A DNA stretch of 64,000 bases, from the NCBI GenBank assembly GCA_963810095.1, contig CAWEMM010000010.1, positions 64,001 through 128,000 of the forward strand, written 5' to 3'. The translations under genes were made by a program, and so were the position numbers. This DNA is from an uncultured Chloroflexia bacterium. Its GTDB lineage: Bacteria > Chloroflexota > Anaerolineae > CG2-30-64-16. Below the pieces are notes generated by a model. It had not been told where the DNA came from. It searched no databases and was given only the letters and a program-made list of their open reading frames with translations. Below are positions 10,926 through 40,387 of the stretch, piece by piece (position 1 is the first letter of the stretch; every line of letters starts with the position of its first letter).

Positions 10926-10938
10926 AAAGAGTGCATCC

Positions 10939-21381: not shown

Positions 21382-21402
21382 CAAGCGGTGTCGGAGGGAG
21401 TA

Positions 21403-24116: not shown

Positions 24117-25215
24117 CTAGCAGATCCTCGGCAGTTGTTCCCCGCTCAGCATGTCCACTACCCGCTGGCCGCCGATGCGTGAGCGGATGACGACCCGCCT
24201 GGGGTGGTCGGCCACCACTTCGCCAATAATGGCGGCCTCCCGCCCGAGCGGATGGCCGCGCATGGCGGACAGCGCAGCATCGGCCTGAGCGGGCGCCACG
24301 ATCGCAATGGCTTTCCCCTCGTTTGCCACGTAGAGAGGGTCCAGCCCCAGGATTTCACACGCGCCTCGCACGGCGTCCCCGAGTGGGATCGCGGTTTCCA
24401 CCAACCGGACGCCCACTTTGGCCGCCTGCGCAATTTCGTTCAGCGCGCTGGAGACGCCCTCCGCGGGTGGGGTCGCGCAGGACGTGCACGTGCTGGCCCG
24501 CCGCGTCGAGCACCGCAGCCACCAGCGTATTCAACGGCGCGGAGTCGCTCACCAGCTCGGTCTCGAAGGCCAAGCCCTCCCGCACCGACATGATGGCCAT
24601 CCCGTGCTCGGCGATGCGGCCCGAGAGCAAGACTTTATCGCCCGGCTGCGCGCGAAGCGGCGAAATGTCAATGCCCTCGGGGACCACGCCGACGCCGGTC
24701 GTGTTGATGTAAATGCCGTCGCCTTTGCCGCGGTCCACCACCTTTGTATCACCCGTCGCCACCGGCGCTCCAACCGACCGGGCGGCCTCGGCCAGCGATT
24801 GCACGATGCGCCAGAGCTCGTCCATCGGCAGCCCCTCTTCGAGGATAAACCCCGCGGACAGGGCGAGCGGCTGCGCGCCGCACATGGCGAGATCGTTCAC
24901 CGTGCCGTGAACGGCCAGCGAGCCGATGTCGCCGCCGGGGAAGAAGCGCGGGCTGATGACGAAGGAGTCAGTCGAGAACGCCAGGCGCGCGCCCCGGCGG
25001 AGGTCCAGGATCGCGCCGTCGTGCAGCGTCTCGTCGGCAAGAGCCTGCTGCGCCGGCCGGCCGTTTCGGAACGCCGGCACGAACATCTTCTCGATCAACA
25101 TCTGTGTAAGGCGGCCGCCGCCGCCGTGGGCGAGCGTCACCGTCGGGTATTCGTTGATCGGGATGGGACACTGCAGTGCGAACGAGGTTTGTGGCGAGAA
25201 GGTGGGAGCGCTCAT
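24117..25215 (-). CDS. hypE: hydrogenase maturation protein HypE, frameshift near 24460
   Basis: [32 protein letters not shown]-terminal LPRIC. Confidence 0.93.
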
Positions 25216-26306
25216 GCGGTCCTTCCGTAGGTGAAATAGGCCGCGCAAGCGCCCTCGCTCGACACCATGGGCGCGCCGACCGGATGATCGGGGGTGCACA
25301 GTTGGCCAAACGCGCTGCACTGGTGCGGCTTCTTCAACCCACGCATGATTTCACCGGCAATGCAGACGCTTGACTCGGGCGCGGTAATGGCGGAAACGCC
25401 GAACCGCCGCTCGGCATCGAACGCCGCATACTCGGGCCGCAGGCGGTAGCCGCTCATTGGGATCACGCCGATTCCCCGCCACTGGCGGTCGGTCGTCTCG
25501 AAAACCTCGGCCAGGATGCGCTGCGCGGCCGGATTGCCTGCGCGCGTCACCAGCCGGCTGTACTGGTTCTCCACGTCGCAGCGGCCCGCTTCCAGCGCGG
25601 CGACGGCCATGTAGATACCTTGCAGCAGGTCGAGCGGCTCGAAGCCGGTTACGATGATAGGCACGCCGTACCTGGGGGCAATTGGCTCGTACTCCCAGTA
25701 GCCCATGACGGTGCAGACGTGGCCCGCAGCGAGGAAGGCCTGCACCTGGTTGTCGGGCGAAGACAGAATGGCCTCCATCGCCGGCGGCACAAGGACATGC
25801 GAGACGAGCACCGAGAAGTTGGTCAACCCCATCTGCCGCGCCTGGTAGACGGCCATCGCATTGCCCGGCGCGGTCGTCTCAAACCCGACGGCGAAGAAGA
25901 CTACCTGCTTGTCCGGATACTTCTGCGCCAGCTTGAGCGCGTCGAGCGGGGAGTACACCATGCGCACGTCGCCGCCCTGCGCTTTAATGCTCAGCAAGTC
26001 TGTGTTGGAGCCCGGGACGCGCAGCATGTCGCCGAACGACGTGAAGATGACGCCGGGCTGTCGCGCTATCGCCAGCGCCCGGTCGATCATCTCCAGGGGG
26101 GTCACGCAGACCGGGCAGCCCGGACCGTGAACCAGGGTGATGCTGTCCGGCAGCATACGGTCGATGCCCGACTTGATCAGCGTGTGGGTTTGCCCACCAC
26201 AGATCTCCATGATCTTCCACGGCCGCGTGATCTTACGCTCGATGGCGCGCAGCAGCACCTGCGCGTCCTCCTCGCGGCGGTATTCGTCGACAAAGCGCAG
26301 CGTCAT
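25212..26306 (-). CDS. hypD: hydrogenase maturation protein HypD
   Basis: [30 protein letters not shown]. Confidence 0.96.
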
Positions 26307-26599
26307 ACCACAGCCGCGCCTTTCGGCACCTCAGGCGCCAGATCGACTTCTTCGGCCTGCATCATCTCGTCCAGTTCACCCATCTCGCGGAGCAGGGCGA
26401 AGACCTCTTCCGCTTCCTCTTCATTCAACTTGTTCAGCGCAAAGCCCGCGTGCACGATGACATAATCCCCGACCTCGGCCTCGGGCGTGTAGGCCAGGCA
26501 CACTTCTTTGGCCACTCCGCCGAAGCTCACCTTGCCCATCGTCATGCCGGCGGGGTTAGGGGTCATTTCAAGTATCTTACCCGGTACTCCCAGACACAT
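26303..26599 (-). CDS. hypC: hydrogenase chaperone HypC
   Basis: [18 protein letters not shown]. Confidence 0.96.
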
Positions 26600-26621
26600 T
26601 ATTTAAGCTCCTAACGCTTAT

Positions 26622-26663
26622 GCCACAGAGGCCGCTCGAGACGCCTCGGGTGTCCTCAGTGGC
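26622..26663. repeat. degenerate family-A-like palindrome
   Basis: GCCACAGAGG...CCTCAGTGGC. Confidence 0.35.
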
Positions 26664-26778
26664 TAGACTAATCGCAAAGTGGAACCTGGAACCTATCCGA
26701 AAAATGCTCTGGCCGGTCTCCGCCGAACCAGACGGGGCACGGTCAGAGACCGGCCCCAGCTAATTCTCGGATAGATAC

Positions 26779-29136
26779 CTAGACCTGCCGTGCGGCCACC
26801 GCCAGCTGTCCGAGGCTGACACACCCGTCGTTTGGCGGGGTCTGGCGGTGCAGCAATACCTCAAAGCCGGCCTCGGCGAGCGCCCCGCTCGCCCGCTCCG
26901 TAAGGAGGCGGTTCTGGAAACAGCCACCGCTGAGCACGACGCGCGGATGGCCCACTCCACGCGCAACATCCACGACGGCACGGACAAGACCGTTGTGAAA
27001 GCGGCCCGCGATGGTTGGGGCAGGCACGGCACGGCGCACATCTTCGATCACCGCCTGCACGACCGGCTCCCAGTCGAGCAGGATACCACGGGTGACGACC
27101 GGGCCGTCAGTGTAACTTTTGTTCCTCAGCTCAAACGCATAAGCCCCACGTTCGGATACGTCGGCGATGTACTCGAGGTGAATCGCGGCTTGCCCTTCGA
27201 AGGTCACCGTCTGTGAAAGACCGGCAAGGCTGGCGATGCCGTCGAACAGGCGGCCCATGCTCGTCGTGGCCGGGCTGTTGATACGCCGGGCCAGCATCTG
27301 CGCCAGGAGGCGCTGCTCGGCATCCCTAAAGTGACGAGCCGGCGGCACATCGAGAGCAAAGGCGCCTTCGCCGTAGATCTCGAACAGCAAGGCCAGCGCG
27401 ACTCGACCGGGTTCGTGCACGGCGGCGTCCCCGCCCGGCAAAGTAAACGGCCGCAGGTGGGCGACCCGCTCATACCCCGTCGCATCGCCCAGGAGAAACT
27501 CACCGCCCCAGATTGCACCGTCCGTGCCGTAGCCGGTGCCGTCCCAAACCACGCCCAGCGCGGGGCCGGTGACCTGGTTTTCGGCCAGGCACGCCGCGAG
27601 GTGCGCGTGGTGGTGCTGCACCCCGATCAGCGGAACGGCGAAGCGCTGCTGCTCGACGGCCCAGCGGGTGGACACGTACTCCGGATGGAGGTCGTGCGCA
27701 ATGGCCTGCGGCGTCACCTCGTACAGGCGCAGGAAGTCCGCGATAACGTGTTCGAATGCGGCGAGCGCTTCCGGGGTTTCGAGGTCTCCGATATGTTGGC
27801 TGATGAAGGCCTGGCGCCCGACACTCAGGCTGACCGTGTTCTTCAGGTGGGGCCCAACGGCCAGAATCGGCGGCGCTTCGTCCTTGAGCAAGACGGGCAG
27901 CGGCGCGTAGCCACGCGCCCGCCGCAGCAGCCTCGGGGCGCCGGCTACGACCCATGCGATGCTGTCGTCCGCATGGCGCTCGATGGGCCGGTCGTGAACC
28001 AGGAAGCCATCGACCATGTGCCCGAGCCGGTCCAACGCGCCGGCCTCGTCCGTGCAGATCGGCTCGTCGCTCAGGTTGCCGCTGGTCGCGACGACCGGGA
28101 AGCCCAACTCGGCCATGAGCAGATGGTGCAGCGGCGTGTAGGGCAGCATGACGCCCAGGGTTGGGTTGTCGGGTGCAACCAGCGGACTCACGCCGCCGGT
28201 CGCAGCGCGCCGCTCGAGCAGCACAATTGGCGCTTCGGGCGATGTGAGCAACGCCTCCGCTGCCGCGGGGACCTCGCAATGCGCCTGCACCCACGCCAGG
28301 TCGGGCGCCATGATTGCAAACGGCCGGTCGGGCCGCGGCTTGCGTTGGCGAAGCGCCGCCACTGCCGCGTCGTTCCGCGCGTCGCACATCAGGTGGAAGC
28401 CACCCAGACCCTTGACCGCCAGGGTGCGCCCTTCTCGCAGCGCACCGGCCGCCCGCGCCAGCGCGTCTGCACCGGCAACGGTTTGCGCCTTCGCGCCCTT
28501 GTTCTGCGCGTCTGCGCGCTCCAGATATCTGATCTGTGGCCCACACACGGGGCACGCGTTGGGCTGCGCATGGAAACGGCGGTCAAGCGGGTCTTCGTAC
28601 TCGTGCCGGCACGCGGGGCACATGATGAAGCGGCGCATGGTCGTGTTCGGCCGGTCGTAGGGCAGTGCCTGGATGATCGTAAAGCGCGGGCCGCAGTTGG
28701 TGCAGTTGGTGAAGGGATACCCGTGGCGCCGGTCAGCAGGATCGAAGATCTCGGCCAGGCAGTCGGGGCAAGTGGCAATGTCGGGCAGGATCAGGACGGT
28801 CTTGGCGCCCGTCTCCTCGCTGTGGCGGATTTCGAACCGCTCGTACCCCGCGGGGGCCAGCCATTCGTGGTTGAGCGACTGGACGATGGCGCGGGGCGGG
28901 ACCTCTTGCGGCAGGCGCGCCAGAAAGCGCTGTACGGTATCGCGTGCGCCTTCGACCTCGATGAACACGCCGGCTGCGTCGTTGATGACCCAGCCGCAGA
29001 GGCCGAGCTCGGTCGCCAGCCGGTACACGAACGGCCGAAAGCCGACCCCTTGCACCGCGCCGTGGATTTCGACGCCGAGCCTGGAGCGAGCGGATTCTGC
29101 GGAGCCTCCCGTTTGACTATGTGACATAATATACAT
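26779..29136 (-). CDS. hypF: carbamoyltransferase HypF
   Basis: VQGVGFRPF, CxxC zinc fingers, RRFHAQP, RRARGY, QHHHAH, DGTGYG; start may be 29127. Confidence 0.96.
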   Translation of the reverse strand: MYIMSHSQTGGSAESARSRLGVEIHGAVQGVGFRPFVYRLATELGLCGWVINDAAGVFIEVEGARDTVQRFLARLPQEVPPRAIVQSLNHEWLAPAGYERFEIRHSEETGAKTVLILPDIATCPDCLAEIFDPADRRHGYPFTNCTNCGPRFTIIQALPYDRPNTTMRRFIMCPACRHEYEDPLDRRFHAQPNACPVCGPQIRYLERADAQNKGAKAQTVAGADALARAAGALREGRTLAVKGLGGFHLMCDARNDAAVAALRQRKPRPDRPFAIMAPDLAWVQAHCEVPAAAEALLTSPEAPIVLLERRAATGGVSPLVAPDNPTLGVMLPYTPLHHLLMAELGFPVVATSGNLSDEPICTDEAGALDRLGHMVDGFLVHDRPIERHADDSIAWVVAGAPRLLRRARGYAPLPVLLKDEAPPILAVGPHLKNTVSLSVGRQAFISQHIGDLETPEALAAFEHVIADFLRLYEVTPQAIAHDLHPEYVSTRWAVEQQRFAVPLIGVQHHHAHLAACLAENQVTGPALGVVWDGTGYGTDGAIWGGEFLLGDATGYERVAHLRPFTLPGGDAAVHEPGRVALALLFEIYGEGAFALDVPPARHFRDAEQRLLAQMLARRINSPATTSMGRLFDGIASLAGLSQTVTFEGQAAIHLEYIADVSERGAYAFELRNKSYTDGPVVTRGILLDWEPVVQAVIEDVRRAVPAPTIAGRFHNGLVRAVVDVARGVGHPRVVLSGGCFQNRLLTERASGALAEAGFEVLLHRQTPPNDGCVSLGQLAVAARQV

Positions 29137-29274
29137 TATAACTCAAACCGGGCTGACTGGCAAAGGGCAGTTGTTCAGTCGCAAGATGACCTCGCGCACG
29201 CGCGTCCACAGCGCGTCCGTTCCACTTTGCGACTAGAAATCCACCCGCGTGGCCGGACAACGCCGAATGAAAAT

Positions 29275-29364
29275 AGGACACTGATTGAACGGATTCGACT
29301 GATTATCAAGATCTTGGTCCCAACGGGCAGTGCAAATCAGTTCAATCAGATAAATCAGCGTCCT
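29275..29364. repeat. family B palindrome (GGACACTGATTGAACGGATT...AATCAGCGTCC)
   Basis: Arms of 9-nt CTGATT/CGGATT units, just after the hypB stop. Confidence 0.8.
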
Positions 29365-29372
29365 TTTTCAGA

Positions 29373-30029
29373 TCAATTTTGGGCGTTCTCGCGACCCGTG
29401 AGCCAGCTCACCCATTCGTCGAGCCCCTCACCCGTGCGGCATGACACGAGGAACACGGGCGCGTCGGGGTTGGTCATCGAAACCCCGCGGCGGAAATACT
29501 CGAGGTCGAAGTCGAAGTACGCGGCCAGGTCGGCCTTGTTGAGCAGCACCGCGTCGCCGGCCGCAAACATGCCGGGGTACTTGTAGGGCTTGTCGTGGCC
29601 CTCGGGGACGCTCGCGACCACCACGGCCAGGGCCGCGCCCAGGTCGAACTCGGCCGGGCAGACGAGGTTGCCGACATTCTCGATGAACAGGACGTCGACC
29701 TCGGCCAGGGGCAAGTTCGGCAGCGCCGAGCGTATCATCGGGGCGTCCAGGTGGCAGTTGCCCCCGGTGTTGATCTGGACCGCCGGGATGCCTGCGGCCA
29801 GCACCTTTTCCGTGTCGATGCGGGATGCCAGGTCGCCTTCGATCACGGCCGGGCGCACCCCTTGCGGCAGGCGCTGCGCCGTGGACAGGATGACGCTGGT
29901 TTTGCCTGCCCCCGGCGACGCCATGATATTGACCGCCAGGATGTGGTGTTCCTGGAACGCATCGCGGTTCTCTGCGGCTACCTCGTCGTTTGCACTCAGA
30001 ATCCGTCGCCGAACGCTAATCTCCGCCAT
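29373..30029 (-). CDS. hypB: nickel GTPase HypB
   Basis: SPGAGKT, EGD, CHLDA, ENVGNLVCP, NKAD. Confidence 0.96.
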   Translation of the reverse strand: MAEISVRRRILSANDEVAAENRDAFQEHHILAVNIMASPGAGKTSVILSTAQRLPQGVRPAVIEGDLASRIDTEKVLAAGIPAVQINTGGNCHLDAPMIRSALPNLPLAEVDVLFIENVGNLVCPAEFDLGAALAVVVASVPEGHDKPYKYPGMFAAGDAVLLNKADLAAYFDFDLEYFRRGVSMTNPDAPVFLVSCRTGEGLDEWVSWLTGRENAQN

Positions 30030-30366
30030 GATCGTTAACCTCAATGCTCTCAACCCGCAACTCGCGGCCACCGGTCACCTGCAGCTTCGTTCCGCCACAG
30101 TGCGGACAGGCCGCCGGCAGCGGGGCGCGCACCTCGGAACTGCGTCCGCAGTCCCAGCACATAATTGTGGCCGGCCGGCGCTGGAAATCAAGGCTGGCCC
30201 CTTCGGCCACGGTGCCCTTGCTCAGCATGTCGAAGTAGAACTGCACCGAGTCGTCGACGATGCTGCTGAGCTCGCCCACGACGAGATGGATGGTCGTGAT
30301 CGGCCGCCCCGCCGCTGCCTCGGTCGCGATCTTGAGGATGCCTTCGGTGATGGATAGTTCGTGCAT
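30016..30366 (-). CDS. hypA: nickel chaperone HypA
   Basis: MHELSI, CWDC...CPHC, GRELRV. Confidence 0.96.
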   Translation of the reverse strand: MHELSITEGILKIATEAAAGRPITTIHLVVGELSSIVDDSVQFYFDMLSKGTVAEGASLDFQRRPATIMCWDCGRSSEVRAPLPAACPHCGGTKLQVTGGRELRVESIEVNDHGGD

Positions 30367-30384
30367 CAGGTCATTATAGCGCGC

Positions 30385-30415
30385 GAAACCAGGTTTCCGC
30401 CAGAAACCTGGTTTT
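30385..30415. repeat. family C repeat doublet
   Basis: GAAACCAGGTTTCCGCCAGAAACCTGGTTTT. Confidence 0.8.
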
Positions 30416-30461
30416 CAGCGCTCTCGCTCGCCGCAGGCGACGCCGCCCGACTGCTGATAGG

Positions 30462-30905
30462 CTAGTGCCCGTAGCTGTTGCCGGTGATGAAACCCTCGAG
30501 GTCGCGAATGGCCGTCCGCTGCTCGGAGATGATCCACTTACCGATATCGCCAATGGTCACCATGCCGGCCACTTGCCCGGCTTCGAGCACCGGCAGGTGG
30601 CGCAGCTTGCGATGGGTCATCAGCTCCAGGCACTCCTCGACCGTCATCGTGGGATCGACCGTCACCACCGGCGAGCTCATCAACTCGAGCACCCGCGTCT
30701 CCTTGGAGTGCCGGCCCATCAGGATGCACTTCCACGCGTAGTCCCGCTCGGAGAACATCCCGACCAGCTTGCCCTCCTGGAGCACGGGCAGCGCGCCGAC
30801 GTTCTTTTCGGCCATCAGCTCCAGTGCCTGAAAGACGGTGGCATAGGGACCGATGGTCCACACGTCCGAGGGCTTGTACCGCATCAGATCGCGTACGTTG
30901 TTCAC
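30462..30905 (-). CDS. CBS-domain protein
   Basis: ALELMAEKNVGALPV, G.FSERDY, RHLPV, IGD. Confidence 0.92.
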   Translation of the reverse strand: MNNVRDLMRYKPSDVWTIGPYATVFQALELMAEKNVGALPVLQEGKLVGMFSERDYAWKCILMGRHSKETRVLELMSSPVVTVDPTMTVEECLELMTHRKLRHLPVLEAGQVAGMVTIGDIGKWIISEQRTAIRDLEGFITGNSYGH

Positions 30906-30921
30906 TCGTCTGCCTCCTTGC

Positions 30922-31494
30922 TTAGCGCTGTGGACGTCCTGACTCCTCGCTCATTGCCTCCGGCCTCACTTCTTCGGTGCGGGGGGTGCCCTCGTAACCT
31001 CGGGCGCCGAGCTCCTGCTGCAGCTTTTCCACCAGGACGTCGATTTGTGCTGCCACCGAAGGAGAGGTTTCGAGTCCGATCTCGAACGACTCGGGCTGCA
31101 CGCCCCACAGTACGATGTCCGGGGGCTCGATGCCCTTAAGCTTCGCCGCAAACAGCATATCGGGCACCCCAACCTGGTGCGGCGAGATCTTCACCGACAG
31201 GAATGCGGGAACCGCTTCACCTTCCAGTCGAATCAGCGTGCCTGCCGGCTTCCCGGTTTCGACCGCATCGACGATCAAGAGAGTCTGGCAGCCCTCGAGG
31301 TAGTAGAGGAGATCCATGCCGAGAGTGCCCCCGTCGACGATCTGCACGGCCGGGGGCAGGACGTAGCGCTCTTGCAGCCGGCGGATCACGTGCACGCCCG
31401 CGCCCTCGTCAGACAGCAGCAGATTGCCGACCCCGAGGATCAAAACCGTCTGGCCCGCCGCGTCTCCGGCCGTCGAGGGCTGCTGGTCGCTCAT
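30922..31494 (-). CDS. HyaD/HybD-type hydrogenase maturation protease
   Basis: LGVGNLLLSDEGAG, DGGTLG, VDAV, SPHQ, GVQP. Confidence 0.92.
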   Translation of the reverse strand: MSDQQPSTAGDAAGQTVLILGVGNLLLSDEGAGVHVIRRLQERYVLPPAVQIVDGGTLGMDLLYYLEGCQTLLIVDAVETGKPAGTLIRLEGEAVPAFLSVKISPHQVGVPDMLFAAKLKGIEPPDIVLWGVQPESFEIGLETSPSVAAQIDVLVEKLQQELGARGYEGTPRTEEVRPEAMSEESGRPQR

Positions 31495-31563
31495 CCATAA
31501 CTCCTTGCGCCGCAACTAGCGCGGTATGAGATTTGCACCGGGTGCCGGCCCAGGGCGTTTTGC

Positions 31564-32007
31564 TCAGCGTGCATACCCGTTGCCGCTGATGTACCCTTCC
31601 AGGTCGTGAATTGTCGAGCGCTGTTCGGAGATGACCCATTTGCCGATATCGCCGATGCTCACGATGCCGGTCAGGCGCTCTCCCTCGAGGACGGGCAGGT
31701 GCCGGAACTGGCGCTCGGTCATCATCACAAGGCATTGCTCGATGCTGAAGGTCGGGTCGATCGTGACCACGGGCGAACTCATGAGCTCGGAAACGAGCGT
31801 TTCTCTGGAGTGGCGGCCCATGAGGATGCACTTGCGTGCGTAATCGCGTTCCGAGAAGATGCCGATGAGACGGCCCGCTTCGACCACCGGGAGCGCGCCC
31901 ACGTTCTTTTCGGCCATTAGCTCCAGCGCCTCATAAACGCTGGCCTGCGGGCCGATCGTCCATACGTCGCCGGATTTGTAGCGCAGCAGATCTTTGATCT
32001 TGTTCAC
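31564..32007 (-). CDS. CBS-domain protein (paralog of 30462..30905)
   Basis: Same motifs and 147-aa length; shared GDIGKW.ISEQR...DLEG.I.GN.Y tail. Confidence 0.92.
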   Translation of the reverse strand: MNKIKDLLRYKSGDVWTIGPQASVYEALELMAEKNVGALPVVEAGRLIGIFSERDYARKCILMGRHSRETLVSELMSSPVVTIDPTFSIEQCLVMMTERQFRHLPVLEGERLTGIVSIGDIGKWVISEQRSTIHDLEGYISGNGYAR

Positions 32008-32216: not shown

Positions 32217-33470
32217 GTGCGGAAGTTAGGGCGGCTGCTAGCAGTTGTGTCGTTGGGGATGGCGCTTATGGCAAGGCGCAGGGTGCGCTGGGGCAGCCTC
32301 GATCCGAGCCTTTTGCCCTATACCGGAAAGCTGATGGCGCAGGCTTTGTCGCCGGTGTGGACCACTGTGGGCGCGCTGGCGGCAATCATCGGGCTGATTG
32401 CCGGCGACAAGGCGGCCGCAGTGGGCGGCGTACTGGGTACGGCGATCGTCGCCGACACGATGCGGCGGGTGTTGGCGCCGCATCACGGGTTCGAGCAGGC
32501 GTTTGGGCCGGCGTGGGACGAGCGCATTCCTGCGGCGCGCAAGGCGCATCTCCCGCGTCGTTGGAACGGCTATCTGCGGCCCGTGCGCACGGCCGGTGTC
32601 CACCGCGACGTCCCCTACGCCGTGCTGCCGGGCGGGCGGCAGTTGTTGTGCGATATCTGGCAGCCGCCGGCCGGGGTCGAGACGTCCGGCGTTGCCATGG
32701 TCTACCTGCACGGCGGGGGCTGGCAGGCGATGGACAAGGACTCGGGCACTCGGCCGTTCTTCCGCCACCTGGCCGCCCAGGGACACGTCATCATGGACGT
32801 GTCCTACCGCCTGTGTCCTGAGACAGATTTGCAGGGCATGGTCGGCGACGTCAAGCGGGCAGTGGCGTGGATGCGAGTGCATGCGTTTGAGTACGGCGCC
32901 GACCCGGACCGCATCGTGCTGGCCGGCGCCTCGGCCGGTGGGCACCTGGCCTTGCTGGGGGCTTATACGGCCGGCGTGCGGGCGCTGTCTCCATTCGAAA
33001 ATTTCGCGGACGCGGCGGTTCGCGGGGTTATTGCGTGGTATGCCCCCGCAGACCTGACCCGTTATTCGGGGGACCGGTTTCCGCGTGATTGGCCGCTGTT
33101 CGTCCGGGTGGCCCACCGGCTGGGCATGATCAATTCGCCCGACCACCTGAGTTGGGTTGACCTTGAGCGTAAGCTGCTGGGTGCGCCGATCCGGGAGGCC
33201 CGCGAGCAGGTCGCGCTGCTCTCGCCGATCACTTACGTGGGCCCACATTGTCCGCCGACGCTCATGATCTATGGCACCCACGACGGCTTGATCCCCATCG
33301 AGGACCCGCGCAGCCTGTACGCCGCGCTGCAGGAGTGCAAGGTGCCCGCCGTGTACCTGGAATTGCCGTGGGTCGATCACGCGTTTGACATGGCGGCGCC
33401 GCATTTGTCGCCTGCCGCGCAGGCCGCGTATCAAGACGTGGAGCAGTTCCTGGCGCTGATGGCGGGCTAA
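32217..33470 (+). CDS. alpha/beta hydrolase (HSL-like esterase) with N-terminal membrane segments
   Basis: HGGGW, GASAGG, GTHD, HAFD. Confidence 0.9.
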   Translation: MRKLGRLLAVVSLGMALMARRRVRWGSLDPSLLPYTGKLMAQALSPVWTTVGALAAIIGLIAGDKAAAVGGVLGTAIVADTMRRVLAPHHGFEQAFGPAWDERIPAARKAHLPRRWNGYLRPVRTAGVHRDVPYAVLPGGRQLLCDIWQPPAGVETSGVAMVYLHGGGWQAMDKDSGTRPFFRHLAAQGHVIMDVSYRLCPETDLQGMVGDVKRAVAWMRVHAFEYGADPDRIVLAGASAGGHLALLGAYTAGVRALSPFENFADAAVRGVIAWYAPADLTRYSGDRFPRDWPLFVRVAHRLGMINSPDHLSWVDLERKLLGAPIREAREQVALLSPITYVGPHCPPTLMIYGTHDGLIPIEDPRSLYAALQECKVPAVYLELPWVDHAFDMAAPHLSPAAQAAYQDVEQFLALMAG

Positions 33471-35221
33471 GCGGGATCCGAGTCGGGGTTAGGTCGGAGG
33501 GGGAGTCTGACTTCAGGCTGCAGCACGGGCAGCCAGAGATAGAACGTGGTGCCCTTGTCGAGCTCCGACTCGACGGTGATCTGCCCGCCCGCCCGCTCGA
33601 CGATCTCCTTGACGATCGACAGGCCCAGGCCGGTGCCCATGCGCGAAACCGACTTGGCGTTGTCTGCCCGGAAGAACTCGGAGAAGAGGCGGGTCATCGC
33701 CTCTTTAGGGATGCCGATGCCGGTGTCGGCGACGCCGGCGATCAGGCGGTCGCCCTCGCGGGCGAGGGTCACCGTGACGTTTCCTCCATCGCGGTTGTAC
33801 TTAATCGCGTTACTGACCAGGTTGTTCCAGAGGCTCCTGATCTGATCGGGGTTGGCCAGCACCGGAGGCAGGTCGGATCCGATATGGGTTTCGACCGTAA
33901 TGCCCCGTTCCTTGGCGCTGCCGGTTAGCAGTTCTACCTGTTCGCACAAAAGTTTCTCGATCTGGATCGGCTGGACGAGCCCGCGGGCATCTGCAGAGCC
34001 AATCCGGCCGAGTTCGAGCAGGTCGGCGATGAGGGCCAGTTGCTCCATCGCCCGGCGCTCGGCCTTTTCGAGGGTTTCGCGGACCTTGTTTTGCGGGACA
34101 TAGCCTTCGAGGATGAGCTTGAGGTAGCTCTGGATGGCCGCCACCGGCGCGCGCAACTCGTGCGTCGTGAGCAGGGTGAACTGGGCACGAACGTCTTCGA
34201 GCTCGCGGAGCTTTCGGTTGGCCAACGCCAACTCGTCGTTGAGGCGTTCGAGCTCGTGCCGCCGGGCGCTGCACTCGGCATTCGCGGCCCGCAGCAGATC
34301 GTTGAGGTCGGCCATGTGGCTGCTGCGCGTCTCCAGGCGATCGAGCGCTTCCCGCAGCCGGGCGTTGACCTGCGCCAACTCCTCGCGCCGGGCCTTACAC
34401 TCGGCATTTGCAACCCGGAGCTGCTCGTTCAATTCGCTCATGTGGCTCGACCGGTTCTGAAGCCGGTCGTATGCGGTTTGGAGTTCCGCGTAGGCTGCAT
34501 CGAGGTGCGCCCGGCTGTGGTGCAGTTCTTCATTCGCCGCCCGCAGCTGTTCGTTCAGGTGGCGCATCTCGGCCGCTCGCTCTTCCGCCCGCACCTGGTT
34601 TTCCTCCAGGTCACGAGTGCGCGAGTGGAGCATGCCGACCAGGGCACTGGTTCCCGCGGCGGCCAGGAAGGTCGTCACCGCGACGGCAACGCATTGTGCG
34701 AACGCGTAAGCGGCCGCCTCAGAGACCGCCGTTGGTTGGGGCATGAGGGGGTGATGTGGCAGCAGGCCGGCCCATTCAGAGATGACGACGGCGGAGTATA
34801 GGGCCGTGGCAAGGCCTGCCGCTCCCAGCGCCGCGCCTCGGCCGAGCAGGACAGCAGCGACAATGACGGGGAACGCATACAACGGGTAGAAGGGATTCTC
34901 CGCCCCGCCCGCAAAGTGGATGACCAAGGTCAGTCCCACGACGTCGGCGAATACCTGGAGGGCGGTGAGGCGCACCCGGGCCGCGGGGCCCGGCTCACGC
35001 GCTGCTCCATTCGAGGGCCGCATGTAAGCGAGGATGCCCAGGCTGAGGGCGGCCAGCAGGCCGAGCGTCAGCGCGAGGGGGGCCAGTTCAAGGGCAGGCG
35101 AAACCTGCGCGACGACCACGGCCAGGAGAAGCGCACCCGCCAATATAATGAGCCGCGCGATGGCAAGCCAGCGCAGTCGAGCCGCCGGAATGGAGGCCGC
35201 GCCAGGAGTGGTCTGAGTCAT
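33467..35221 (-). CDS. membrane sensor histidine kinase with long repeated coiled-coil linker
   Basis: About 6 TMs, HELRAP H-box, NLVSNAIKY, DTGIGI, GTGLGL. Confidence 0.93.
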   Translation of the reverse strand: MTQTTPGAASIPAARLRWLAIARLIILAGALLLAVVVAQVSPALELAPLALTLGLLAALSLGILAYMRPSNGAAREPGPAARVRLTALQVFADVVGLTLVIHFAGGAENPFYPLYAFPVIVAAVLLGRGAALGAAGLATALYSAVVISEWAGLLPHHPLMPQPTAVSEAAAYAFAQCVAVAVTTFLAAAGTSALVGMLHSRTRDLEENQVRAEERAAEMRHLNEQLRAANEELHHSRAHLDAAYAELQTAYDRLQNRSSHMSELNEQLRVANAECKARREELAQVNARLREALDRLETRSSHMADLNDLLRAANAECSARRHELERLNDELALANRKLRELEDVRAQFTLLTTHELRAPVAAIQSYLKLILEGYVPQNKVRETLEKAERRAMEQLALIADLLELGRIGSADARGLVQPIQIEKLLCEQVELLTGSAKERGITVETHIGSDLPPVLANPDQIRSLWNNLVSNAIKYNRDGGNVTVTLAREGDRLIAGVADTGIGIPKEAMTRLFSEFFRADNAKSVSRMGTGLGLSIVKEIVERAGGQITVESELDKGTTFYLWLPVLQPEVRLPLRPNPDSDPA

Positions 35222-35249
35222 CGGATCATCCGGGGGGGCAATGCTGCCA

Positions 35250-35726
35250 TCAAGGCACGTCGAACTGCTCGCAGATGGCCGCGTACGCCTCCTTCAAGTC
35301 AGAAAGGGCAATGATACAGTTGACCGTCGAGATCGAGGTGCTGATTGCCAGGATGTTGATGCCACGGGCCGCCAGCGTACGAAACATCCGCCCTGCGATG
35401 CCCGGGCGCTCGCGGAAGTCAGGACCGAAGATGGCGATGGATGCTACCTCGGGTCGGGGCTCGAGTGCGGCGGGCTGCATCTCAGGACGCAGCGCCTCGA
35501 CGGCGGCCAGGGCGTTCGGCAGGTCACCCCGGTCGACACACAACACCATCTGGTCGTGCTGCTCGTGATCGATCACCTGCACCACAAACTGCACGTTCAG
35601 CCCGCGCTCGCCGAGGGCATCGAGCACGGCGGCGGCGATCCCCGGCCGGTCCTTCACCGCCAGCACGCTCACACTGGCCAATTGGTCGTTCTGAATGACC
35701 CCACCCACTTTGATCTTGTCGGTCAT
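35250..35726 (-). CDS. tandem ACT-domain protein (aspartokinase beta-like)
   Basis: DRPGIAA...L...G.NV; PGIAGRMF.TLA..GINI.AISTS. Confidence 0.88.
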   Translation of the reverse strand: MTDKIKVGGVIQNDQLASVSVLAVKDRPGIAAAVLDALGERGLNVQFVVQVIDHEQHDQMVLCVDRGDLPNALAAVEALRPEMQPAALEPRPEVASIAIFGPDFRERPGIAGRMFRTLAARGINILAISTSISTVNCIIALSDLKEAYAAICEQFDVP

Positions 35727-35740
35727 TTTACCTCACTGCA

Positions 35741-36133
35741 CTAGGCGGCTGTCAGCGCGAGCAGGCGGTCGACCTGCCGCAGCAGCTCGGCCGGCGCGAT
35801 GGGCTTGGTCAGGAACGCATCGATGTGGATGCTTTCGTCGGTCGGGAACAACGCCAGGTAGTCGGTGTTCGCAATCGAGGTGACCATGACCACGGGCACG
35901 TGCTTGTAGTCGGGATCGTCCGCCATCCGCTGGCTCATGCTCAGCCCGTCGAGCACCGAGGACATGATCACGTCCAGCACGACCAGGTCCGGCTTCTCGC
36001 GGCCCAGCACTAGCATGCCCTGGTCGCTATTTCCCGCGCTCACCACCTGATAATCGGCTTTTTCGAGCACAAGTCGCGAGTATTCTACAAAGTCCGGGTC
36101 GTCGTCGACGATGAGGATTTTGGCCTTCGACAT
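35741..36133 (-). CDS. single-domain response regulator
   Basis: ILIVDDD, PDLVVLDVIM, TS, KP. Confidence 0.9.
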   Translation of the reverse strand: MSKAKILIVDDDPDFVEYSRLVLEKADYQVVSAGNSDQGMLVLGREKPDLVVLDVIMSSVLDGLSMSQRMADDPDYKHVPVVMVTSIANTDYLALFPTDESIHIDAFLTKPIAPAELLRQVDRLLALTAA

Positions 36134-36260
36134 TTGTCCACTCCCGCCGCTCGCGCGGTTTCTCAGTTGAGATGCTAGCGCCCGGAGGGGCACGCCTCGC
36201 AGCCTTTGCCGAGGCCGGGCCCCGCAAGCTCTACACGGTCCTTCTTGAACAGCCCCGGTC

Positions 36261-36290
36261 AATTAGTCTTATCTGTTCAATCAGTGTCCC
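36261..36290. repeat. single arm of a family B repeat
   Basis: ATCTGTTCAATCAGTGTCC matches the right arm at 49043-49061. Confidence 0.65.
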
Positions 36291-36299
36291 ATTTTTGAT

Positions 36300-37568
36300 T
36301 CAGTTGGCATGGATGCGCGCGACGAACTCGCTGCGGAAACGGTTTAGGCCCGAGCTGACGGGCTCGCACATCCCCGTGCCCATCGGGCAGAACGTGACAC
36401 CGGCAATGCCGCGCGTCAGTTCTTCGAGCTTGGTCAGCTCGCGACTCGTGCCGCGCCCGGCCGCGATCGTCTCCAGCGTGCGTAGCAGCTGTTCTCCGCC
36501 GACCCGGCACGGCGTGCAGCCGCCGCACGACTCGTGCACGAAGAAGCTCGTGATGCGCCGGGCCACCTCGACCATGTCGGTGGTTTCATCCATAACGATC
36601 ACGGCGCCGGTGCCCAATGCAGAGCCCGCGGCCTGGAGCGTTTCGAACGCCATAGGCGTGTCCAGTTGGTCGGCGGTCATAATCGGCGTGGACGCACCAC
36701 CGGGAATTACGGCTTTGACATTCCGGCCGAGTCGGACGCCGCCGGCATGCTCGTAAATCACCTCGCGCAGCGTGACCCCAAGCGGCAGCTCATAGTTGCC
36801 GGGGCGGTTTACATGGCCGCTCACGCAGAAGATCTTGGGCCCCTTGCTCTGGCTGGTGCCGATCGTTGTATACCACTCGGCGCCACAGCGGATGATGTGG
36901 GGGATGTTGGCCAGCGTTTCGACGTTCTGAACGAGCGTCGGTTGGCCCCACAGCCCCACCTGGGCGGGATACGGCGGCTTGAGGCGCGGCTGCCCGCGGC
37001 TGCCCTCGAGCGACTCGATCATGGCCGTCTCTTCGCCACAAATATACGCGCCCGCGCCGCGATGCACCGAGACGTCCAAGTCAAACCCGCTCCCAAGGAT
37101 GTTCTTCCCCAAAAAGCCGTGCTGATATGCGTCGGCAATGGCCTTGATCCAGCGCTTGACCCCCAGGAAGAACTCGCCCCGGATATAGACGAACGCCCGC
37201 CGCGCACCGATGGCGTATGCAGCAATGATGACGCCTTCGAGGATCGAGTGCGGATCGCGCTCGACGATCAAACGATCCTTGAATGTGCCGGGCTCGCCCT
37301 CATCCGTGTTCACGGCCAGGTACTTCACCGGGGCATCCTTCGGGATGAACCCCCACTTCGTGCCCGTGGGAAAGCCAGCGCCCCCACGGCCTCGCAGGCC
37401 TGACGCCTTGACCTCCGCAATGATCTGGTCAGGCGACATCGTCAGCGCCTTGCGCAGGGCTTCGTACCCGCCGGTCTGCAGGTAGGTAGTTATCTTCTCC
37501 GAGTTGGGCTTCGTGACCCGTGAGAGGAGCACGGGGGCCCACTGCGCCGCGCCATTGGCAGATGCCAT
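36300..37568 (-). CDS. complex-I-type NuoF (FMN/NADH, [4Fe-4S])
   Basis: LRGRGGAGFPTG, DEGEPGTFKDR, GAGAYICGEET, PGGAS, ESCGGCTPCR...C. Confidence 0.93.
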   Translation of the reverse strand: MASANGAAQWAPVLLSRVTKPNSEKITTYLQTGGYEALRKALTMSPDQIIAEVKASGLRGRGGAGFPTGTKWGFIPKDAPVKYLAVNTDEGEPGTFKDRLIVERDPHSILEGVIIAAYAIGARRAFVYIRGEFFLGVKRWIKAIADAYQHGFLGKNILGSGFDLDVSVHRGAGAYICGEETAMIESLEGSRGQPRLKPPYPAQVGLWGQPTLVQNVETLANIPHIIRCGAEWYTTIGTSQSKGPKIFCVSGHVNRPGNYELPLGVTLREVIYEHAGGVRLGRNVKAVIPGGASTPIMTADQLDTPMAFETLQAAGSALGTGAVIVMDETTDMVEVARRITSFFVHESCGGCTPCRVGGEQLLRTLETIAAGRGTSRELTKLEELTRGIAGVTFCPMGTGMCEPVSSGLNRFRSEFVARIHAN

Positions 37569-37569
37569 A

Positions 37570-38043
37570 TCACACCTCCCCCATCAGCCGTTCGAGGATG
37601 GCGTCGATCGCCGCGGGTGTCAGATTCTCGTACAGTTGATCGTTGACGCGCATGGCCGGCGCGGTGCCGCACGAGGCCAGGCACTGGACCATTTCGAGCG
37701 TGAAGCGTCCATCGGGGGTCGACTCGCCGGGGCTCAAGCTGAGCTTGGTGCCCACGTAGTCGGCGACCCTTTCCGCACCCTCGCAGAGGTAGCATGACAG
37801 GCCGTCACACACCTGGATCACGTAGCGGCCGACGGGCTCCGTGCGAAACAAGGTGTAGAAGCTGGCCGTGCTGTAGACGTCGCCTGCACGCAATCCCAGC
37901 CGCTTGGCAACCCGCTCGACGGCCTCTTTCGTGAGGTAACCCTTTTGCTCCTGCGCGATATAGAGCGCGGCCAGCAACACCGACTGCTTGGCGGGGTCGA
38001 CAATCGCCGATCCCACCGGTCTCGCTTGGGCGTCCCCGTTCAT
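37570..38043 (-). CDS. NuoE-like [2Fe-2S] protein
   Basis: AQEQKGYL, ASFYTLF, CDGLSC...CLASC. Confidence 0.92.
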   Translation of the reverse strand: MNGDAQARPVGSAIVDPAKQSVLLAALYIAQEQKGYLTKEAVERVAKRLGLRAGDVYSTASFYTLFRTEPVGRYVIQVCDGLSCYLCEGAERVADYVGTKLSLSPGESTPDGRFTLEMVQCLASCGTAPAMRVNDQLYENLTPAAIDAILERLMGEV

Positions 38044-38122
38044 CTGGACTCCTCTCTCCTCGGCGCACCGGGCAAAACGAGCGTGTCGTTGCAGGTGCCG
38101 GGACTATGCGGCTGGCTTGGAC

Positions 38123-38563
38123 TCAGGCTCCTCCCGCGGACGATCCGCCTGGAGATGGCGCCGGTCCCGAATTGCCCAAAATGCTGGCGACCTGGGCCAG
38201 TAATTCATCAGGGCTGATGGGTTTGCTGAGAAAGCGATCGACCATGGCCCGTTCGTCGGTGGGCAGAAAGCGGTCTTCGTCCTCACTGAGGACGGCGGAG
38301 ATTAGAATCAGGGGGATGTGGGCCAACTGGGGGTCGGTGCGCACGGAACGGATCATGCCTACGCCCGCCAATTCGTAGGACATCATGGCGTCGAGGAGGA
38401 CAAGATCGGGCGCGGTGGCATGCATGAGGGCCAGGCCTTCCATCGCATTGTGGGCCTCGTGGACCTCATACCCGTGCGCTTCCAGGACGATGTGCACGAA
38501 CTCACGAAAGTCCGGGTCGTCGTCGACAATGACGATCGACTGCGTCAACTTGGACACGGTCAA
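38123..38563 (-). CDS. single-domain response regulator
   Basis: IVDDDPDF, PDLVLLDAMM, KP. Confidence 0.88.
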   Translation of the reverse strand: MTVSKLTQSIVIVDDDPDFREFVHIVLEAHGYEVHEAHNAMEGLALMHATAPDLVLLDAMMSYELAGVGMIRSVRTDPQLAHIPLILISAVLSEDEDRFLPTDERAMVDRFLSKPISPDELLAQVASILGNSGPAPSPGGSSAGGA

Positions 38564-38574
38564 CTCCGCGGCGC

Positions 38575-38955
38575 TTAGTTTAGTAACTCGGCCACCTTGT
38601 TCAGCAGCACCTTGGGATCCACCGGCTTCGACAGCCAGGCGTCCATGTGCGGCTGCTGTTCCATGGGGAAGACGTGTGCGTAGGGCGTTTCGGCTATGGA
38701 CGACACCATGATTACCGGCATGAAGCGGGCGTCAGGGTCTTGGGACAGCTTCTCGCTTACATCCAGCCCGTCGAGCACCGTGGACATCATGATATCGAGG
38801 ATCATGAGGTCGGGCCGCAGGGCCTTGACCTGAGCCATGGCCTGGTTGCCATTGGCCGCGGTTACAACCTGGTAATCGTTCGATTCGAGGATCGTCCGCA
38901 TGATTTCGACGAAGTCGGGATCATCGTCGACGACGAGGATTTTGGCAGAAGACAT
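38575..38955 (-). CDS. single-domain response regulator
   Basis: VVDDDPDF, PDLMILDIMM, KP. Confidence 0.9.
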   Translation of the reverse strand: MSSAKILVVDDDPDFVEIMRTILESNDYQVVTAANGNQAMAQVKALRPDLMILDIMMSTVLDGLDVSEKLSQDPDARFMPVIMVSSIAETPYAHVFPMEQQPHMDAWLSKPVDPKVLLNKVAELLN

Positions 38956-39062
38956 CTCTGGCTTGCTCCTTGCGATATTGCGATAGTCTACCATATTATG
39001 CCACCTGTCACAAGCTCCATGCAATGACGGGCATCAGGATTGCGGGGGATCAAAGTGGATGC

Positions 39063-39137
39063 TGACCACAAAGGCTCGAAGACACGAAGCCACACGAAGC
39101 CTTTGTGAACCTTAGTGTCTCCGAGCCTTTGTGGTTA
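39063..39137. repeat. family A palindrome
   Basis: GACCACAAAGGCTCGAAGACACGAAG...CTTAGTGTCTCCGAGCCTTTGTGGTT. Confidence 0.85.
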
Positions 39138-39187
39138 ACCGCTTCGCACGTCGAGGCATGATAAAATGGCGGACGGGAGGGGATCCG

Positions 39188-39619
39188 ATGGAAGAGGAAT
39201 TGTTGGCCGTGCTCGACGCGCACCTGAAGAGCATCTGGGCCGGTGATCTGACGGCGTATCGAGCGACGACCGCAGAGGACGTCACGTTTTTCGAGTGGTA
39301 CATCAGCACCCAGCGCATCGATGGACTGGACTTTCACCTGCGTGAGACCGCGGCCCAGTTCCGGGCGGCGGAGGACCGGCGGCGTTCGGGCCAGCGTTAC
39401 GAGATCGAGCACGAGGTGCTGCAGCCCAAGATTCAAGTGTACGGCGACGTCGCGATCGTCACTTATACGCTGCTGATGCGCTACACGTCGTCCGACGTCG
39501 TGCGGCATACCGAACATAACGAAACACGGGTGTTTCACCGCCGGGCCGCGGGCTGGCAGCTCGTGCACTGCCACAAGTCGCCGATGTGGCCCGCCCCACA
39601 TGCACCGTCAGGCAGGTAG
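39188..39619 (+). CDS. NTF2-like (SnoaL/DUF4440/CaMKII-AD-like) protein
   Basis: GDLTAY, GLDFH, GDVAIVTY, ETRVF...W..VHCH.S. Confidence 0.85.
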   Translation: MEEELLAVLDAHLKSIWAGDLTAYRATTAEDVTFFEWYISTQRIDGLDFHLRETAAQFRAAEDRRRSGQRYEIEHEVLQPKIQVYGDVAIVTYTLLMRYTSSDVVRHTEHNETRVFHRRAAGWQLVHCHKSPMWPAPHAPSGR

Positions 39620-39623
39620 GTCC

Positions 39624-40387
39624 ATGTCACAACTTGCGCTTATCACGGGCGCGTCGAGCGGCATCGGCGAGGAGTTCGGCCGGCAGCTCGCCGCCCGGGG
39701 ATACGATCTCGATCTTAACTGCGCGGCGTGCGGAGCGACTGGCTGCTCTCGCCACAGAGCTGACGCAAAAGCATGGGGTGCGGGTGGAGACGCTGCCCGC
39801 GGATCTCTCCATTCCCGATTGCATTGCGGCCGTGGCAGCACGGGCGCACGCGGGCGACGTCGACCTCCTGGTGAATAACGCCGGGTTCGGCATCGGAAAG
39901 AAGTTCGCCCACGCAGGGCTCGGCGGACAGGAGGCGATGCTGTCTGTTCATATCCAGGCGCCCATGCAGCTGATGCACGCCGTCCTGCCGGCCATGATCG
40001 AGCGCCACCGAGGCGGTGTGATTAATGTCGCCTCGCTCGCGGCCTATTTCTCACTTCCGACCGAGGCCAATTACACCGCGACGAAGGCATACCTGGTGCG
40101 CTTTTCGCGGGCGGTCCACGGCGAAGTGCGGCGCACGGGAGTGACGGTGCAAGCGCTCTGCCCCGGCTTCACCGTGTCTGAAATGCACATCGATCGCCAG
40201 ACGGGCGCAATTCAAGCGGCAGGGTCCTGCGTTTCTCTGGTCAGAGGCAAGCGAGGTTGTCGGCGCGTCGCTGCATGCGTTCGATCGCCGCAAGTCGCTC
40301 TGCGTGCCCGGAGGAATCAACAAGCTGGTTTACTGGATCGGGAAGCTCGGCGTGGCCGATGTCTTTCTGCCGTACTTCCTGCGCTAG
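39624..40387 (+). CDS. short-chain dehydrogenase/reductase, frameshifts near 39710 and 40220
   Basis: TGASSGIG, NNAG, Y.ATK, LCPG spread over three frames. Confidence 0.85.

Follow-up and report, generated by a model that had tools for sequence, protein, structure and literature searches.

Why would the genes for an NADH-binding flavoprotein lie in the middle of a signalling operon? The question is raised by a 64,000-nucleotide stretch of DNA (the window; contig CAWEMM010000010.1, positions 64,001 to 128,000) from an uncultured bacterium of the class Anaerolineae (Chloroflexota). Seven co-directional genes on its minus strand encode, in this order, two receivers (REC1 and REC2), a NuoE/NuoF pair (NuoEF), a third receiver (REC3), a protein with two ACT domains and a histidine kinase (HK). 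NuoEF and REC3 probably form a functional unit, part of a phosphorelay devoted to NAD(P)H-linked hydrogen and formate metabolism. What carries this conclusion is the constancy of the pair: across Anaerolineae the REC3 gene follows that of NuoF while the other genes vary, and two natural fusions join the two proteins. The answer that we tentatively prefer is that the relay controls NuoEF through REC3. The genes are listed here with the domains found by a Pfam search of the open reading frame (ORF) translations from the window:

38575-38955, minus strand: REC1, a single-domain receiver of 126 residues with its ATG at 38955 (Response_reg, E 3e-24)
38123-38563, minus strand: REC2, a single-domain receiver of 146 residues (Response_reg, E 3.7e-18)
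37570-38043, minus strand: NuoE-type [2Fe-2S] thioredoxin-like subunit of 157 residues (2Fe-2S_thioredx, PF01257, E 2.8e-46)
36300-37568, minus strand: NuoF-type flavoprotein with flavin mononucleotide (FMN), NADH and [4Fe-4S] sites, a short form of 422 residues (Complex1_51K, SLBB and NADH_4Fe-4S)
35741-36133, minus strand: REC3, a single-domain receiver of 130 residues (Response_reg, E 5.7e-20)
35250-35726, minus strand: stand-alone double-ACT protein of 158 residues (ACT_9, ACT and ACT_7)
33467-35221, minus strand: membrane histidine kinase of 584 residues (6TM_PilS, HisKA and HATPase_c)
32217-33470, plus strand: convergent esterase gene, which bounds the operon

The gaps between the seven genes, in operon order, are 11, 79, 1, 166, 14 and 28 nt, the 79 nt separating the end of REC2 from nuoE and the 166 nt separating nuoF from the start of REC3. 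The original prediction, made from the letters of the window, had placed these seven genes correctly. It had also noted that there is no NuoG, hydrogenase or dehydrogenase catalytic subunit among them and that the three receivers share the motif DDDPDF and lack an output domain, all of which is borne out by the translations and by Pfam: Response_reg is the sole domain found in each receiver, and neither a DNA-binding nor an enzymatic output domain is detected by Pfam on any of them in the window. Its description of NuoF as the short complex I type, with EPGTFKD and GGAS in the translation, agrees with the length of the protein and with a score above the TIGR01959 cut-off.

The core features of a two-component system are present, namely HisKA and HATPase_c in the kinase and an acidic pocket, Asp, Thr/Ser and Lys in the receivers, REC1 and REC2 having kept the phospho-acceptor Asp and the conserved Lys. 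The kinase consists of a PilS-like domain with six transmembrane helices (6TM), a long coiled coil, HisKA and HATPase_c. (The coiled coil, at about residues 215-345, is made of three similar repeats of about 40 residues, LNEQLR.AN.EC..RR.EL, and the number of repeat matches varies between orthologues.) The ACT protein resembles the C-terminal regulatory region of aspartate kinases, with an NCBIfam E value of 1.7e-29 that lies far under the equivalog cut-offs. A scan of positions 33000-39700 gave one promoter-like and four terminator-like sites, not above the means of 1.1 and 4.1 in shuffled sequence. Sequencing runs containing this DNA were sought as a source of transcript evidence, and the nine listed, from five studies, are all of DNA and none of RNA.

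The receiver adjoining NuoF

How constant is this arrangement? Eighty loci related to the operon were found, of which 19, all from Anaerolineae or Chloroflexota, have NuoF identities of 65-84%. The REC3 gene comes after that of NuoF in 19/19, NuoE lies upstream wherever the contig reaches that far, and the ACT and kinase genes are there where the contig allows. The remaining 61 loci, at 58% identity or less and from other phyla, hold no receiver or kinase that matches those of the window. A sample of 300 further genomes from the class of the source gave NuoF of this clade (at least 61% identity) in 56, one of them as a partial match, and no more than 59% in all others, which leaves a clear gap; the 56 carry 16 of the 62 family labels of the sample. 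A receiver directly follows NuoF in 50 of the 55 evaluable genomes (56 loci were examined, G147 being left out because its contig ends too early to judge), with five exceptions, G237, G125, G004, G204 and G238. The receiver-NuoF adjacency is far beyond chance, and the conservation of neighbourhood that had been proposed as a check of the original prediction is thus seen across Anaerolineae.

The other genes of the cassette are less regular. Over 52 distinct loci (two REC3 rows missed by an overlap rule were read from the table by eye), a receiver follows NuoF in 49/51, while 40 of the 46 evaluable loci have a kinase no more than 7 kb downstream and six lack one; the ACT protein stands between REC3 and the kinase in 36/46, and a receiver is found upstream of NuoE in 36/47. 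The upstream receiver protein is longer than 250 residues in 24/47, and the one that was scanned (L120) has a Lrp/AsnC helix-turn-helix (HTH), a RAM domain and a receiver. Genes for formate dehydrogenase (FDH), hydrogenase, hyp or hdr lie within about 10 kb in 26 of the 52 loci. Across these loci the receivers keep the acceptor Asp in 180 and the Lys in 181 of 182 cases. REC3 orthologues occur in 52 of the 56 clade genomes and in 7 of the 244 others, a contrast that is overstated, since the genomes are related; the threshold (E <= 1e-42) was chosen afterwards.

REC3 itself has a mean column identity of 69% in 50 orthologues. Throughout these, D10, D11, D12, D54, T85 and K110 are invariant, as is a clade motif, MVTSIANxDYxxLFP, at the usual place of helix 4. 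The face of helix 4 is the one that receivers usually present to their partners. The AlphaFold2 (AF2) model of REC3, with a mean predicted local distance difference test (pLDDT) of 85.9 and a predicted template modelling score (pTM) of 0.83, has helix 4 only at residues 92-95, with low confidence over 91-100. A fold search of the PDB returned only generic receivers (RR468, RpaA and DivK), and a PDB profile search did likewise.

When longer proteins were searched with REC3, two natural NuoF::REC fusions with different linkers were found. One of them (P0008, 575 residues) holds a full NuoF and a REC3-type receiver; the other (P0007, 481 residues) is N-terminally cut and has a linker of nine residues, which would hold the receiver near the C-terminal N3 domain of NuoF. 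The same search gave REC-REC tandems and many Lrp/AsnC-REC proteins; their receiver, of the same subfamily as REC3, shares 47-58% identity with it. Of about 280 residues (L120:6575-7423; P0009-P0120), with an HTH, a RAM ligand-binding domain and a C-terminal receiver, these are unusual DNA-binding response regulators that are common in Anaerolineae. No REC::NuoE fusion was found: REC2 gave 15 matches among longer proteins, none with a NuoE domain, and NuoE gave one match, without a receiver, although such absences are weak evidence.

A multimer model of NuoEF with the kinase or the receivers had also been suggested. Run with REC3, the prediction gave a complex score of 0.55 (0.56, 0.55 and 0.11 in the three runs) against 0.00 for the best of three controls; between runs, at least 71% of contacts are shared, and the partner has a pLDDT of at least 77. 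In the benchmark of this score, 58 of 80 solved complexes and 2 of 110 mismatched pairs passed; only 7 of the 80 solved complexes, but both of these mismatches, did so with a score of 0.60 or less. The model thus lends weak support to a physical contact between NuoEF and REC3 of the kind that we infer.

What changes around the pair? In its common form the cassette reads [Lrp-REC]-REC-REC-NuoE-NuoF-REC3-ACT-HK(6TM). A variant in a group-3b-like hydrogenase setting (L020, L109 and others) reads NuoE-NuoF-REC3-HK(Cache+HAMP)-HK(Cache+HAMP)-REC-[REC-HisKA-HATPase-Fer4_22], and in L020 this block is followed by a FAD/NAD gamma-like subunit and the small and large NiFe subunits. A kinase-less variant (L112, L113, L116) has NuoF::GltD-FdhA or a NiFe hydrogenase, then NuoE-NuoF-REC3 and a rubrerythrin-like protein. 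There is also an inserted form (L118, L121), in which the whole block lies between NuoE-NuoF::GltD and the NuoG-like, small and large hydrogenase genes. The kinase may therefore be 6TM PilS-like, Cache+HAMP or REC-HK-Fer4_22, or may be missing, while NuoEF-REC3 is constant, as one would expect if different sensors feed a receiver-effector pair.

Two proteins of these variant loci deserve mention in their own right. The first is a REC-HisKA-HATPase hybrid with a C-terminal Fer4_22 4Fe-4S dicluster region (L020:16255-18486, L109:949-3363, L178:1634-3964, L179:12579-14819). The core of the window kinase is 49% identical to that of this REC-HK-Fer4_22 kinase; the roughly 250 residues between its kinase and FeS domains gave no Pfam match. 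In L020, L178 and L179 its gene precedes those for the gamma-like (FAD/NAD), small and large NiFe hydrogenase subunits, so that it appears to be a kinase fused to the beta subunit of a group-3b-like hydrogenase. The second is a fusion of 773 residues (L112:5394-7715, L113:10755-13076), two genes after NuoE-NuoF-REC3, that combines a cyclic-nucleotide-binding domain, acetate kinase and a PTAC-type phosphotransacylase. One idea is that acetyl phosphate might serve as the phosphodonor of REC3 in these two kinase-less loci.

Descent and redox sites of the NuoEF pair

Is this NuoEF still equipped as an enzyme, and where did it come from? The best PDB matches of the window NuoF are complex I NuoF from M. 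smegmatis (8e9g_F, E 3e-137) and from T. thermophilus (2fug_1), and every cofactor motif aligns with them; others include 6tg9, 8oh5 and 7t2r. The FMN/NADH-binding motifs GRGGAGFP, EPGTFKD and CGEET and the cysteine ligands of cluster N3 (C348, C351, C354 and C394) are invariant in 51 NuoF orthologues (mean column identity 75%), and C79, C84, C121 and C125, which bind the [2Fe-2S] cluster, are invariant in 50 orthologues of NuoE. A loss or change of catalytic residues, which might mark a dedicated sensor, was not seen in the NuoE and NuoF orthologues. NuoE and NuoF would thus make up a soluble, cofactor-complete NADH-binding flavoprotein with FMN, the [4Fe-4S] cluster N3 and the [2Fe-2S] cluster N1a. 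The NuoF-like subunit of the HydB type (Bfu/HydABC) is defined by an extra N-terminal [2Fe-2S] domain and a C-terminal 2x[4Fe-4S] domain, and Pfam finds neither in the 422 residues of the window NuoF.

A tree of NuoF (IQ-TREE quick search, LG+G4, 150 rows) gathers the short sequences into one Anaerolineae-specific clade of 65 tips with a Shimodaira-Hasegawa-like approximate likelihood ratio (SH-aLRT) support of 100. The clade stands apart both from the NuoF of Anaerolineae nuo operons, which include a fused copy in the source genome, and from the complex I NuoF of other phyla. Its first split separates L171, L158 and L172 from the rest. L171 reads NuoE-NuoF-REC3-NuoG-like-NiFe small/large-hypA/B/F, and L158 and L172 read NuoE-NuoF-FdhA, without a receiver. 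Because these basal members occupy hydrogenase and FDH operons, the ancestral role of the clade is that of NADH module in soluble hydrogenases and formate dehydrogenases, a working diaphorase. A signature that was derived in the present analysis, and is not curated, points the same way: after the N3 CxxCxxC, Glu occurs in 99% and Trp in 98% of 82 other NuoF sequences of the complex I type (CR-E-G-xx-W), whereas 62 clade members have V/I/T and R/H/Q at these two positions, giving a soluble-diaphorase type of motif, CR-V/I-G-xx-R/H. Both NuoF::GltD fusions of the source genome are alike in this respect.

How many such proteins does the source genome (G000; 16 contigs, 88.5% complete) encode? It has five matches to the NuoF family PF01512:

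NuoF 1: the short NuoF of the window operon
NuoF 2 and 3: NuoF::GltD fusions, of which one is linked to FDH and the other to a NiFe hydrogenase
NuoF 4: a HoxF-like protein of 656 residues on contig C9, with NuoE and a HoxU-like neighbour
NuoF 5: a fused NuoEF of 646 residues, encoded on contig C2 in a nuo operon that places it between fused NuoCD and a NuoG of 529 residues, with NuoH downstream

Since the C2 operon holds a fused NuoEF and NuoG, complex I has its own N-module, and the NuoEF of the window operon is additional to it; the supposition that the nuo operon might lack nuoEF is not borne out. (The fused NuoCD, of 603 residues, is seen in L094 and L097, G000:C2:60001-90000.) Of the two, the window pair looks more canonical, since the fused copy falls just under the NCBIfam cut-offs: for TIGR01959 (nuoF) the window NuoF scores 590.2 bits and the fused protein 541.6 (cut-off 558.65), and for TIGR01958 (nuoE) the values are 155 and 133.4 bits (cut-off 142.4). 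A second, divergent cluster on C2 begins with a nuoH that is read in two frames (C2:78383-79289), and its genes seem to be those of the membrane arm only. Elsewhere in the clade, G150 (a single contig, 98% complete) and G051 (92% complete) have the clade NuoEF and no NuoH match.

Hydrogen and formate genes around the operon

The operon lies beside an island of hyp, hdr and fdh genes, as the original prediction had said, and in relatives the cassette likewise recurs near hydrogenase, FDH and hyp genes. In the window, the island comprises:

7101-7652, plus strand: NuoE of the FDH-linked module
7649-10843, plus strand: NuoF::GltD fusion of the FDH-linked module
10897-13312, plus strand: FdhA, read as two ORFs
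16355-22869: Hdr/Mvh-like genes
24355-32007: hypE, hypD, hypF, hypB, hypA, a hydrogenase maturation protease and two CBS proteins

The two CBS proteins are paralogous CBS-pair proteins of 147 residues that flank the gene for the maturation protease (30922-31515), at 30462-32007 on the minus strand, between hypA and the esterase gene. The catalytic part of fdhA has an in-frame TGA at 12134-12136 that looks like a selenocysteine codon. Its NuoG-like N-terminal ORF (10897-12003) is in a different frame, with the change of frame near 11980-12003; in relatives, a single in-frame stop separates the two parts. The source genome has two NuoE + NuoF::GltD modules (fusions of 1064 and 1068 residues), one heading the FDH of the window and the other a NiFe hydrogenase (L096, G000:C10:52816-61854). 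In the hydrogenase-linked module, a protein of 207 residues with HATPase_c as its only domain lies between NuoE and NuoF::GltD. A strict co-occurrence of NuoF::GltD with the short NuoF clade was considered and rejected, since full-length matches are found in non-clade genomes (G211, G273, G144 and G083, for example); some clade genomes match over the NuoF half only, among them G125, G237, G116, G150, G278 and G299.

Direction of control and known systems

How might such a unit work? In one clade of Anaerolineae, NuoEF, a paralogue of the complex I N-module with a likeness to the diaphorases of soluble hydrogenases and formate dehydrogenases as well, has probably gained the CheY-like REC3 as a dedicated partner. 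The membrane kinase would phosphorylate the three receivers, with the ACT protein probably assisting as its ligand sensor in the cytoplasm, and the phosphorylation state of REC3 would alter the behaviour of NuoEF, with REC3 lying close to the electron exit of NuoF, its C-terminal N3 domain. The property altered could be NADH oxidation by NuoEF or its docking to a NuoG-like FeS partner of the neighbouring FDH or hydrogenases. NADH-linked hydrogen and formate metabolism would in this way be tuned at the protein level, and a transcriptional output may be added in many relatives by an Lrp/AsnC-REC protein whose receiver is of the REC3 subfamily. The source genome has no Lrp/AsnC-REC homologue by tblastn, and thus the operon encodes no transcriptional output there and NuoEF is its sole non-signalling product. 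The only receivers of the REC3 subfamily in that genome are the three of the operon, the next tblastn matches having at most 39% identity.

That the signal passes from relay to REC3 to NuoEF, making NuoEF-REC3 a phospho-switchable NADH flavoprotein unit, is proposed tentatively and preferred to a role in sensing, because the stable pair consists of receiver and flavoprotein while sensors vary, because the fusions join the receiver to the enzyme, because the basal members are working diaphorases and because a precedent has been published for mycobacterial complex I. Several observations weigh against it. The direction of signalling is fixed by no computational result, and the complex prediction gives weak support, one of its three runs having scored 0.11. 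The fusions form just two clusters, which might conceivably reflect a stop codon lost to sequencing error. No dedicated NuoG-like partner for the short NuoEF is found in the source genome by a PF10588 search, which has only three matches, each in an operon with its own NuoF-type protein; candidates for a redox partner would be the NuoG-like N-terminal part of FdhA (10897-12003), the NuoG-like hydrogenase subunit (PF10588 match at G000:C10:58362-58490) and the NuoG of complex I. The enzymatic gain from an extra NuoEF is unclear, given that the neighbouring enzymes have NAD(P)H modules of their own (NuoE + NuoF::GltD, or a FAD/NAD gamma subunit). In the sister genomes G237 and G125, NuoEF lies elsewhere and REC3 accompanies kinases and a group-3b-like hydrogenase. 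Finally, REC3-like receiver cassettes without short NuoEF exist (L174, L176, L177 and L175, which follows NuoE-NuoF::GltD-FdhA and includes ACT and kinase genes), so that receivers of the REC3 type must have other targets or roles as well.

The original prediction had NuoEF reporting the NADH/NAD+ ratio to a phosphorelay. Read as a report to the kinase, this is not supported by the loci, in which the conserved partner is REC3, by adjacency and by two fusions, and the kinase varies in type or is missing. A broader version, in which NuoEF was exapted as a sensor of NADH/NAD+ whose FMN/FeS state is read by a multi-receiver phosphorelay controlling hydrogen and formate metabolism, either through REC3 as a private receiver, whose use as phosphate acceptor or sink NuoEF might for example gate, or through the kinase, is possible, if rather doubtful. 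It would explain why NuoEF is additional both to complex I and to neighbouring enzymes with NAD(P)H-binding modules, why it sits amid a signalling cassette that in L118 and L121 was inserted whole into a hydrogenase operon, and why a cassette such as that of L175 can do without it, NuoEF being in that case an optional input; the Fer4_22 kinase indicates that redox-cofactor domains are wired into kinases here, and the clade is old, monophyletic and strongly constrained, as its column identity indicates. On the other hand, Cache-bearing kinases need no input from NuoEF, there are NuoEF-REC3 loci without any kinase, the basal members hold ordinary diaphorase positions in FDH and hydrogenase operons, and the catalytic residues are neither lost nor changed. 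By the logic of two-component systems, the pattern of constant REC3 and changing kinase is no less compatible with a receiver that acts on NuoEF than with NuoEF as a sensor.

The same basal members (NuoE-NuoF-FdhA, and NuoE-NuoF-(REC3)-NuoG-like-NiFe hydrogenase) might instead suggest that NuoEF is a plain diaphorase of the nearby FDH or NiFe hydrogenase, and that receivers, ACT protein and kinase share its operon with no link at the protein level. The FDH, hydrogenase, hyp or hdr genes near half of the loci and the soluble type of post-N3 residues are in keeping with this. It is nevertheless unlikely, since NuoF::REC3 fusions exist, the NuoF-REC3 adjacency is near-universal and persists while all else changes, the source genome encodes no DNA-binding regulator of the REC3 receiver subfamily, and the adjacent FDH and hydrogenase already own NuoE + NuoF::GltD. 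Least probable by far is that NuoEF is the N-module of a respiratory complex I encoded away from the nuo operon, for instance for the second, partial nuoH-N cluster on C2. The existence of that second nuoH and the NCBIfam scores, which the window proteins pass and the fused copy narrowly misses, speak for it; but a fused NuoEF and the sole NuoG of the complex I type are already encoded in the nuo operon, clade genomes exist without a NuoH match, and the clade has other residues in place of Glu and Trp after the N3 motif and is separate from the NuoF of Anaerolineae nuo operons.

Why should control of NuoEF by the relay matter? Control of the enzymes of hydrogen and formate metabolism is mostly ascribed to thermodynamics and transcription, and, to our knowledge, the minute-to-minute choice between hydrogen and formate disposal in fermenting and syntrophic bacteria is poorly understood. 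If the relay controls NuoEF, then response-regulator control of an NADH dehydrogenase module, for which there has so far been only an unexplained subunit of mycobacterial complex I, would gain a second and simpler system, one of three small soluble proteins and hence more tractable. If NuoEF were a sensor, it would represent a new class of NADH sensor, by which the cell tunes hydrogen and formate production to its pyridine-nucleotide redox state. Either way, a widespread, uncultured group would have an NADH-binding flavoprotein tied to a phosphorylation switch beside its hydrogen and formate enzymes, and the orphan NuoEF operons of Chloroflexota gain, for the present clade, a concrete and testable context. 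Such operons were described in Chloroflexi by Hug et al. 2013, with a function given as "unclear" (PMC3971608), and full-text searches of the literature yielded no paper on NuoEF with receivers or kinases.

Which known systems does the unit resemble? In the regulatory hydrogenase of Cupriavidus (HoxBC-HoxJ-HoxA), which senses H2, a paralogue of the enzyme binds a histidine kinase. The concept is similar, a redox-enzyme paralogue in a two-component pathway that governs the corresponding enzymes, but the proteins are unrelated, the conserved partner of NuoEF is a receiver instead of a kinase, and sensing by NuoEF is hypothetical. Rex is a one-component, DNA-binding Rossmann repressor that responds to NADH/NAD+ and has no flavin or FeS centres. 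It would have the same signal and the same targets (fermentative electron disposal) only if NuoEF were a sensor, and there is no homology. With the N-module of complex I (Nqo2/Nqo1; 2fug, 8e9g), NuoE and NuoF share their domains, their length class and all ligands for FMN, NADH, N3 and N1a; unlike it, the short NuoEF lies outside the nuo operon with no NuoG beside it, forms a separate clade without the post-N3 Glu/Trp, occurs in genomes without a NuoH match and is paired with a receiver (50/55). The diaphorase modules of soluble NAD(P)-linked FDHs and NiFe and FeFe hydrogenases (FdsGB, HoxEF and HydBC of the Bfu family; 6tg9, 8oh5, 7t2r) are matched by the position of the basal clade members and by the soluble type of post-N3 residues. 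They differ in that the window NuoF has none of the extra FeS domains of HydB or HoxF, no catalytic or NuoG-like subunit is co-encoded, and a receiver is attached.

The closest precedent for NuoEF-REC3 would appear to be the response-regulator subunit of mycobacterial complex I. MSMEG_2064/Rv3143 is an "orphan" single-domain response regulator that, according to two papers (PMC9274095; PMC10068793), is a structural subunit of that complex, in which its acceptor Asp is occluded; in the second of these (PMC10068793), MSMEG_2064 is described as binding NuoB, NuoA, NuoC and NuoI of the whole membrane complex. It resembles REC3 in being a single-domain receiver with an intact acceptor Asp, encoded beside NADH-dehydrogenase genes and proposed to act on proteins and not on DNA. 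The likeness is one of architecture, and there are clear differences: by fusion and adjacency, the partner of REC3 is the NuoF of a stand-alone NuoEF, and the window operon co-encodes a cognate kinase, two more receivers and an ACT protein. A response regulator on complex I was thus already known, and what would be new here is a response regulator attached to a stand-alone NADH-dehydrogenase module.

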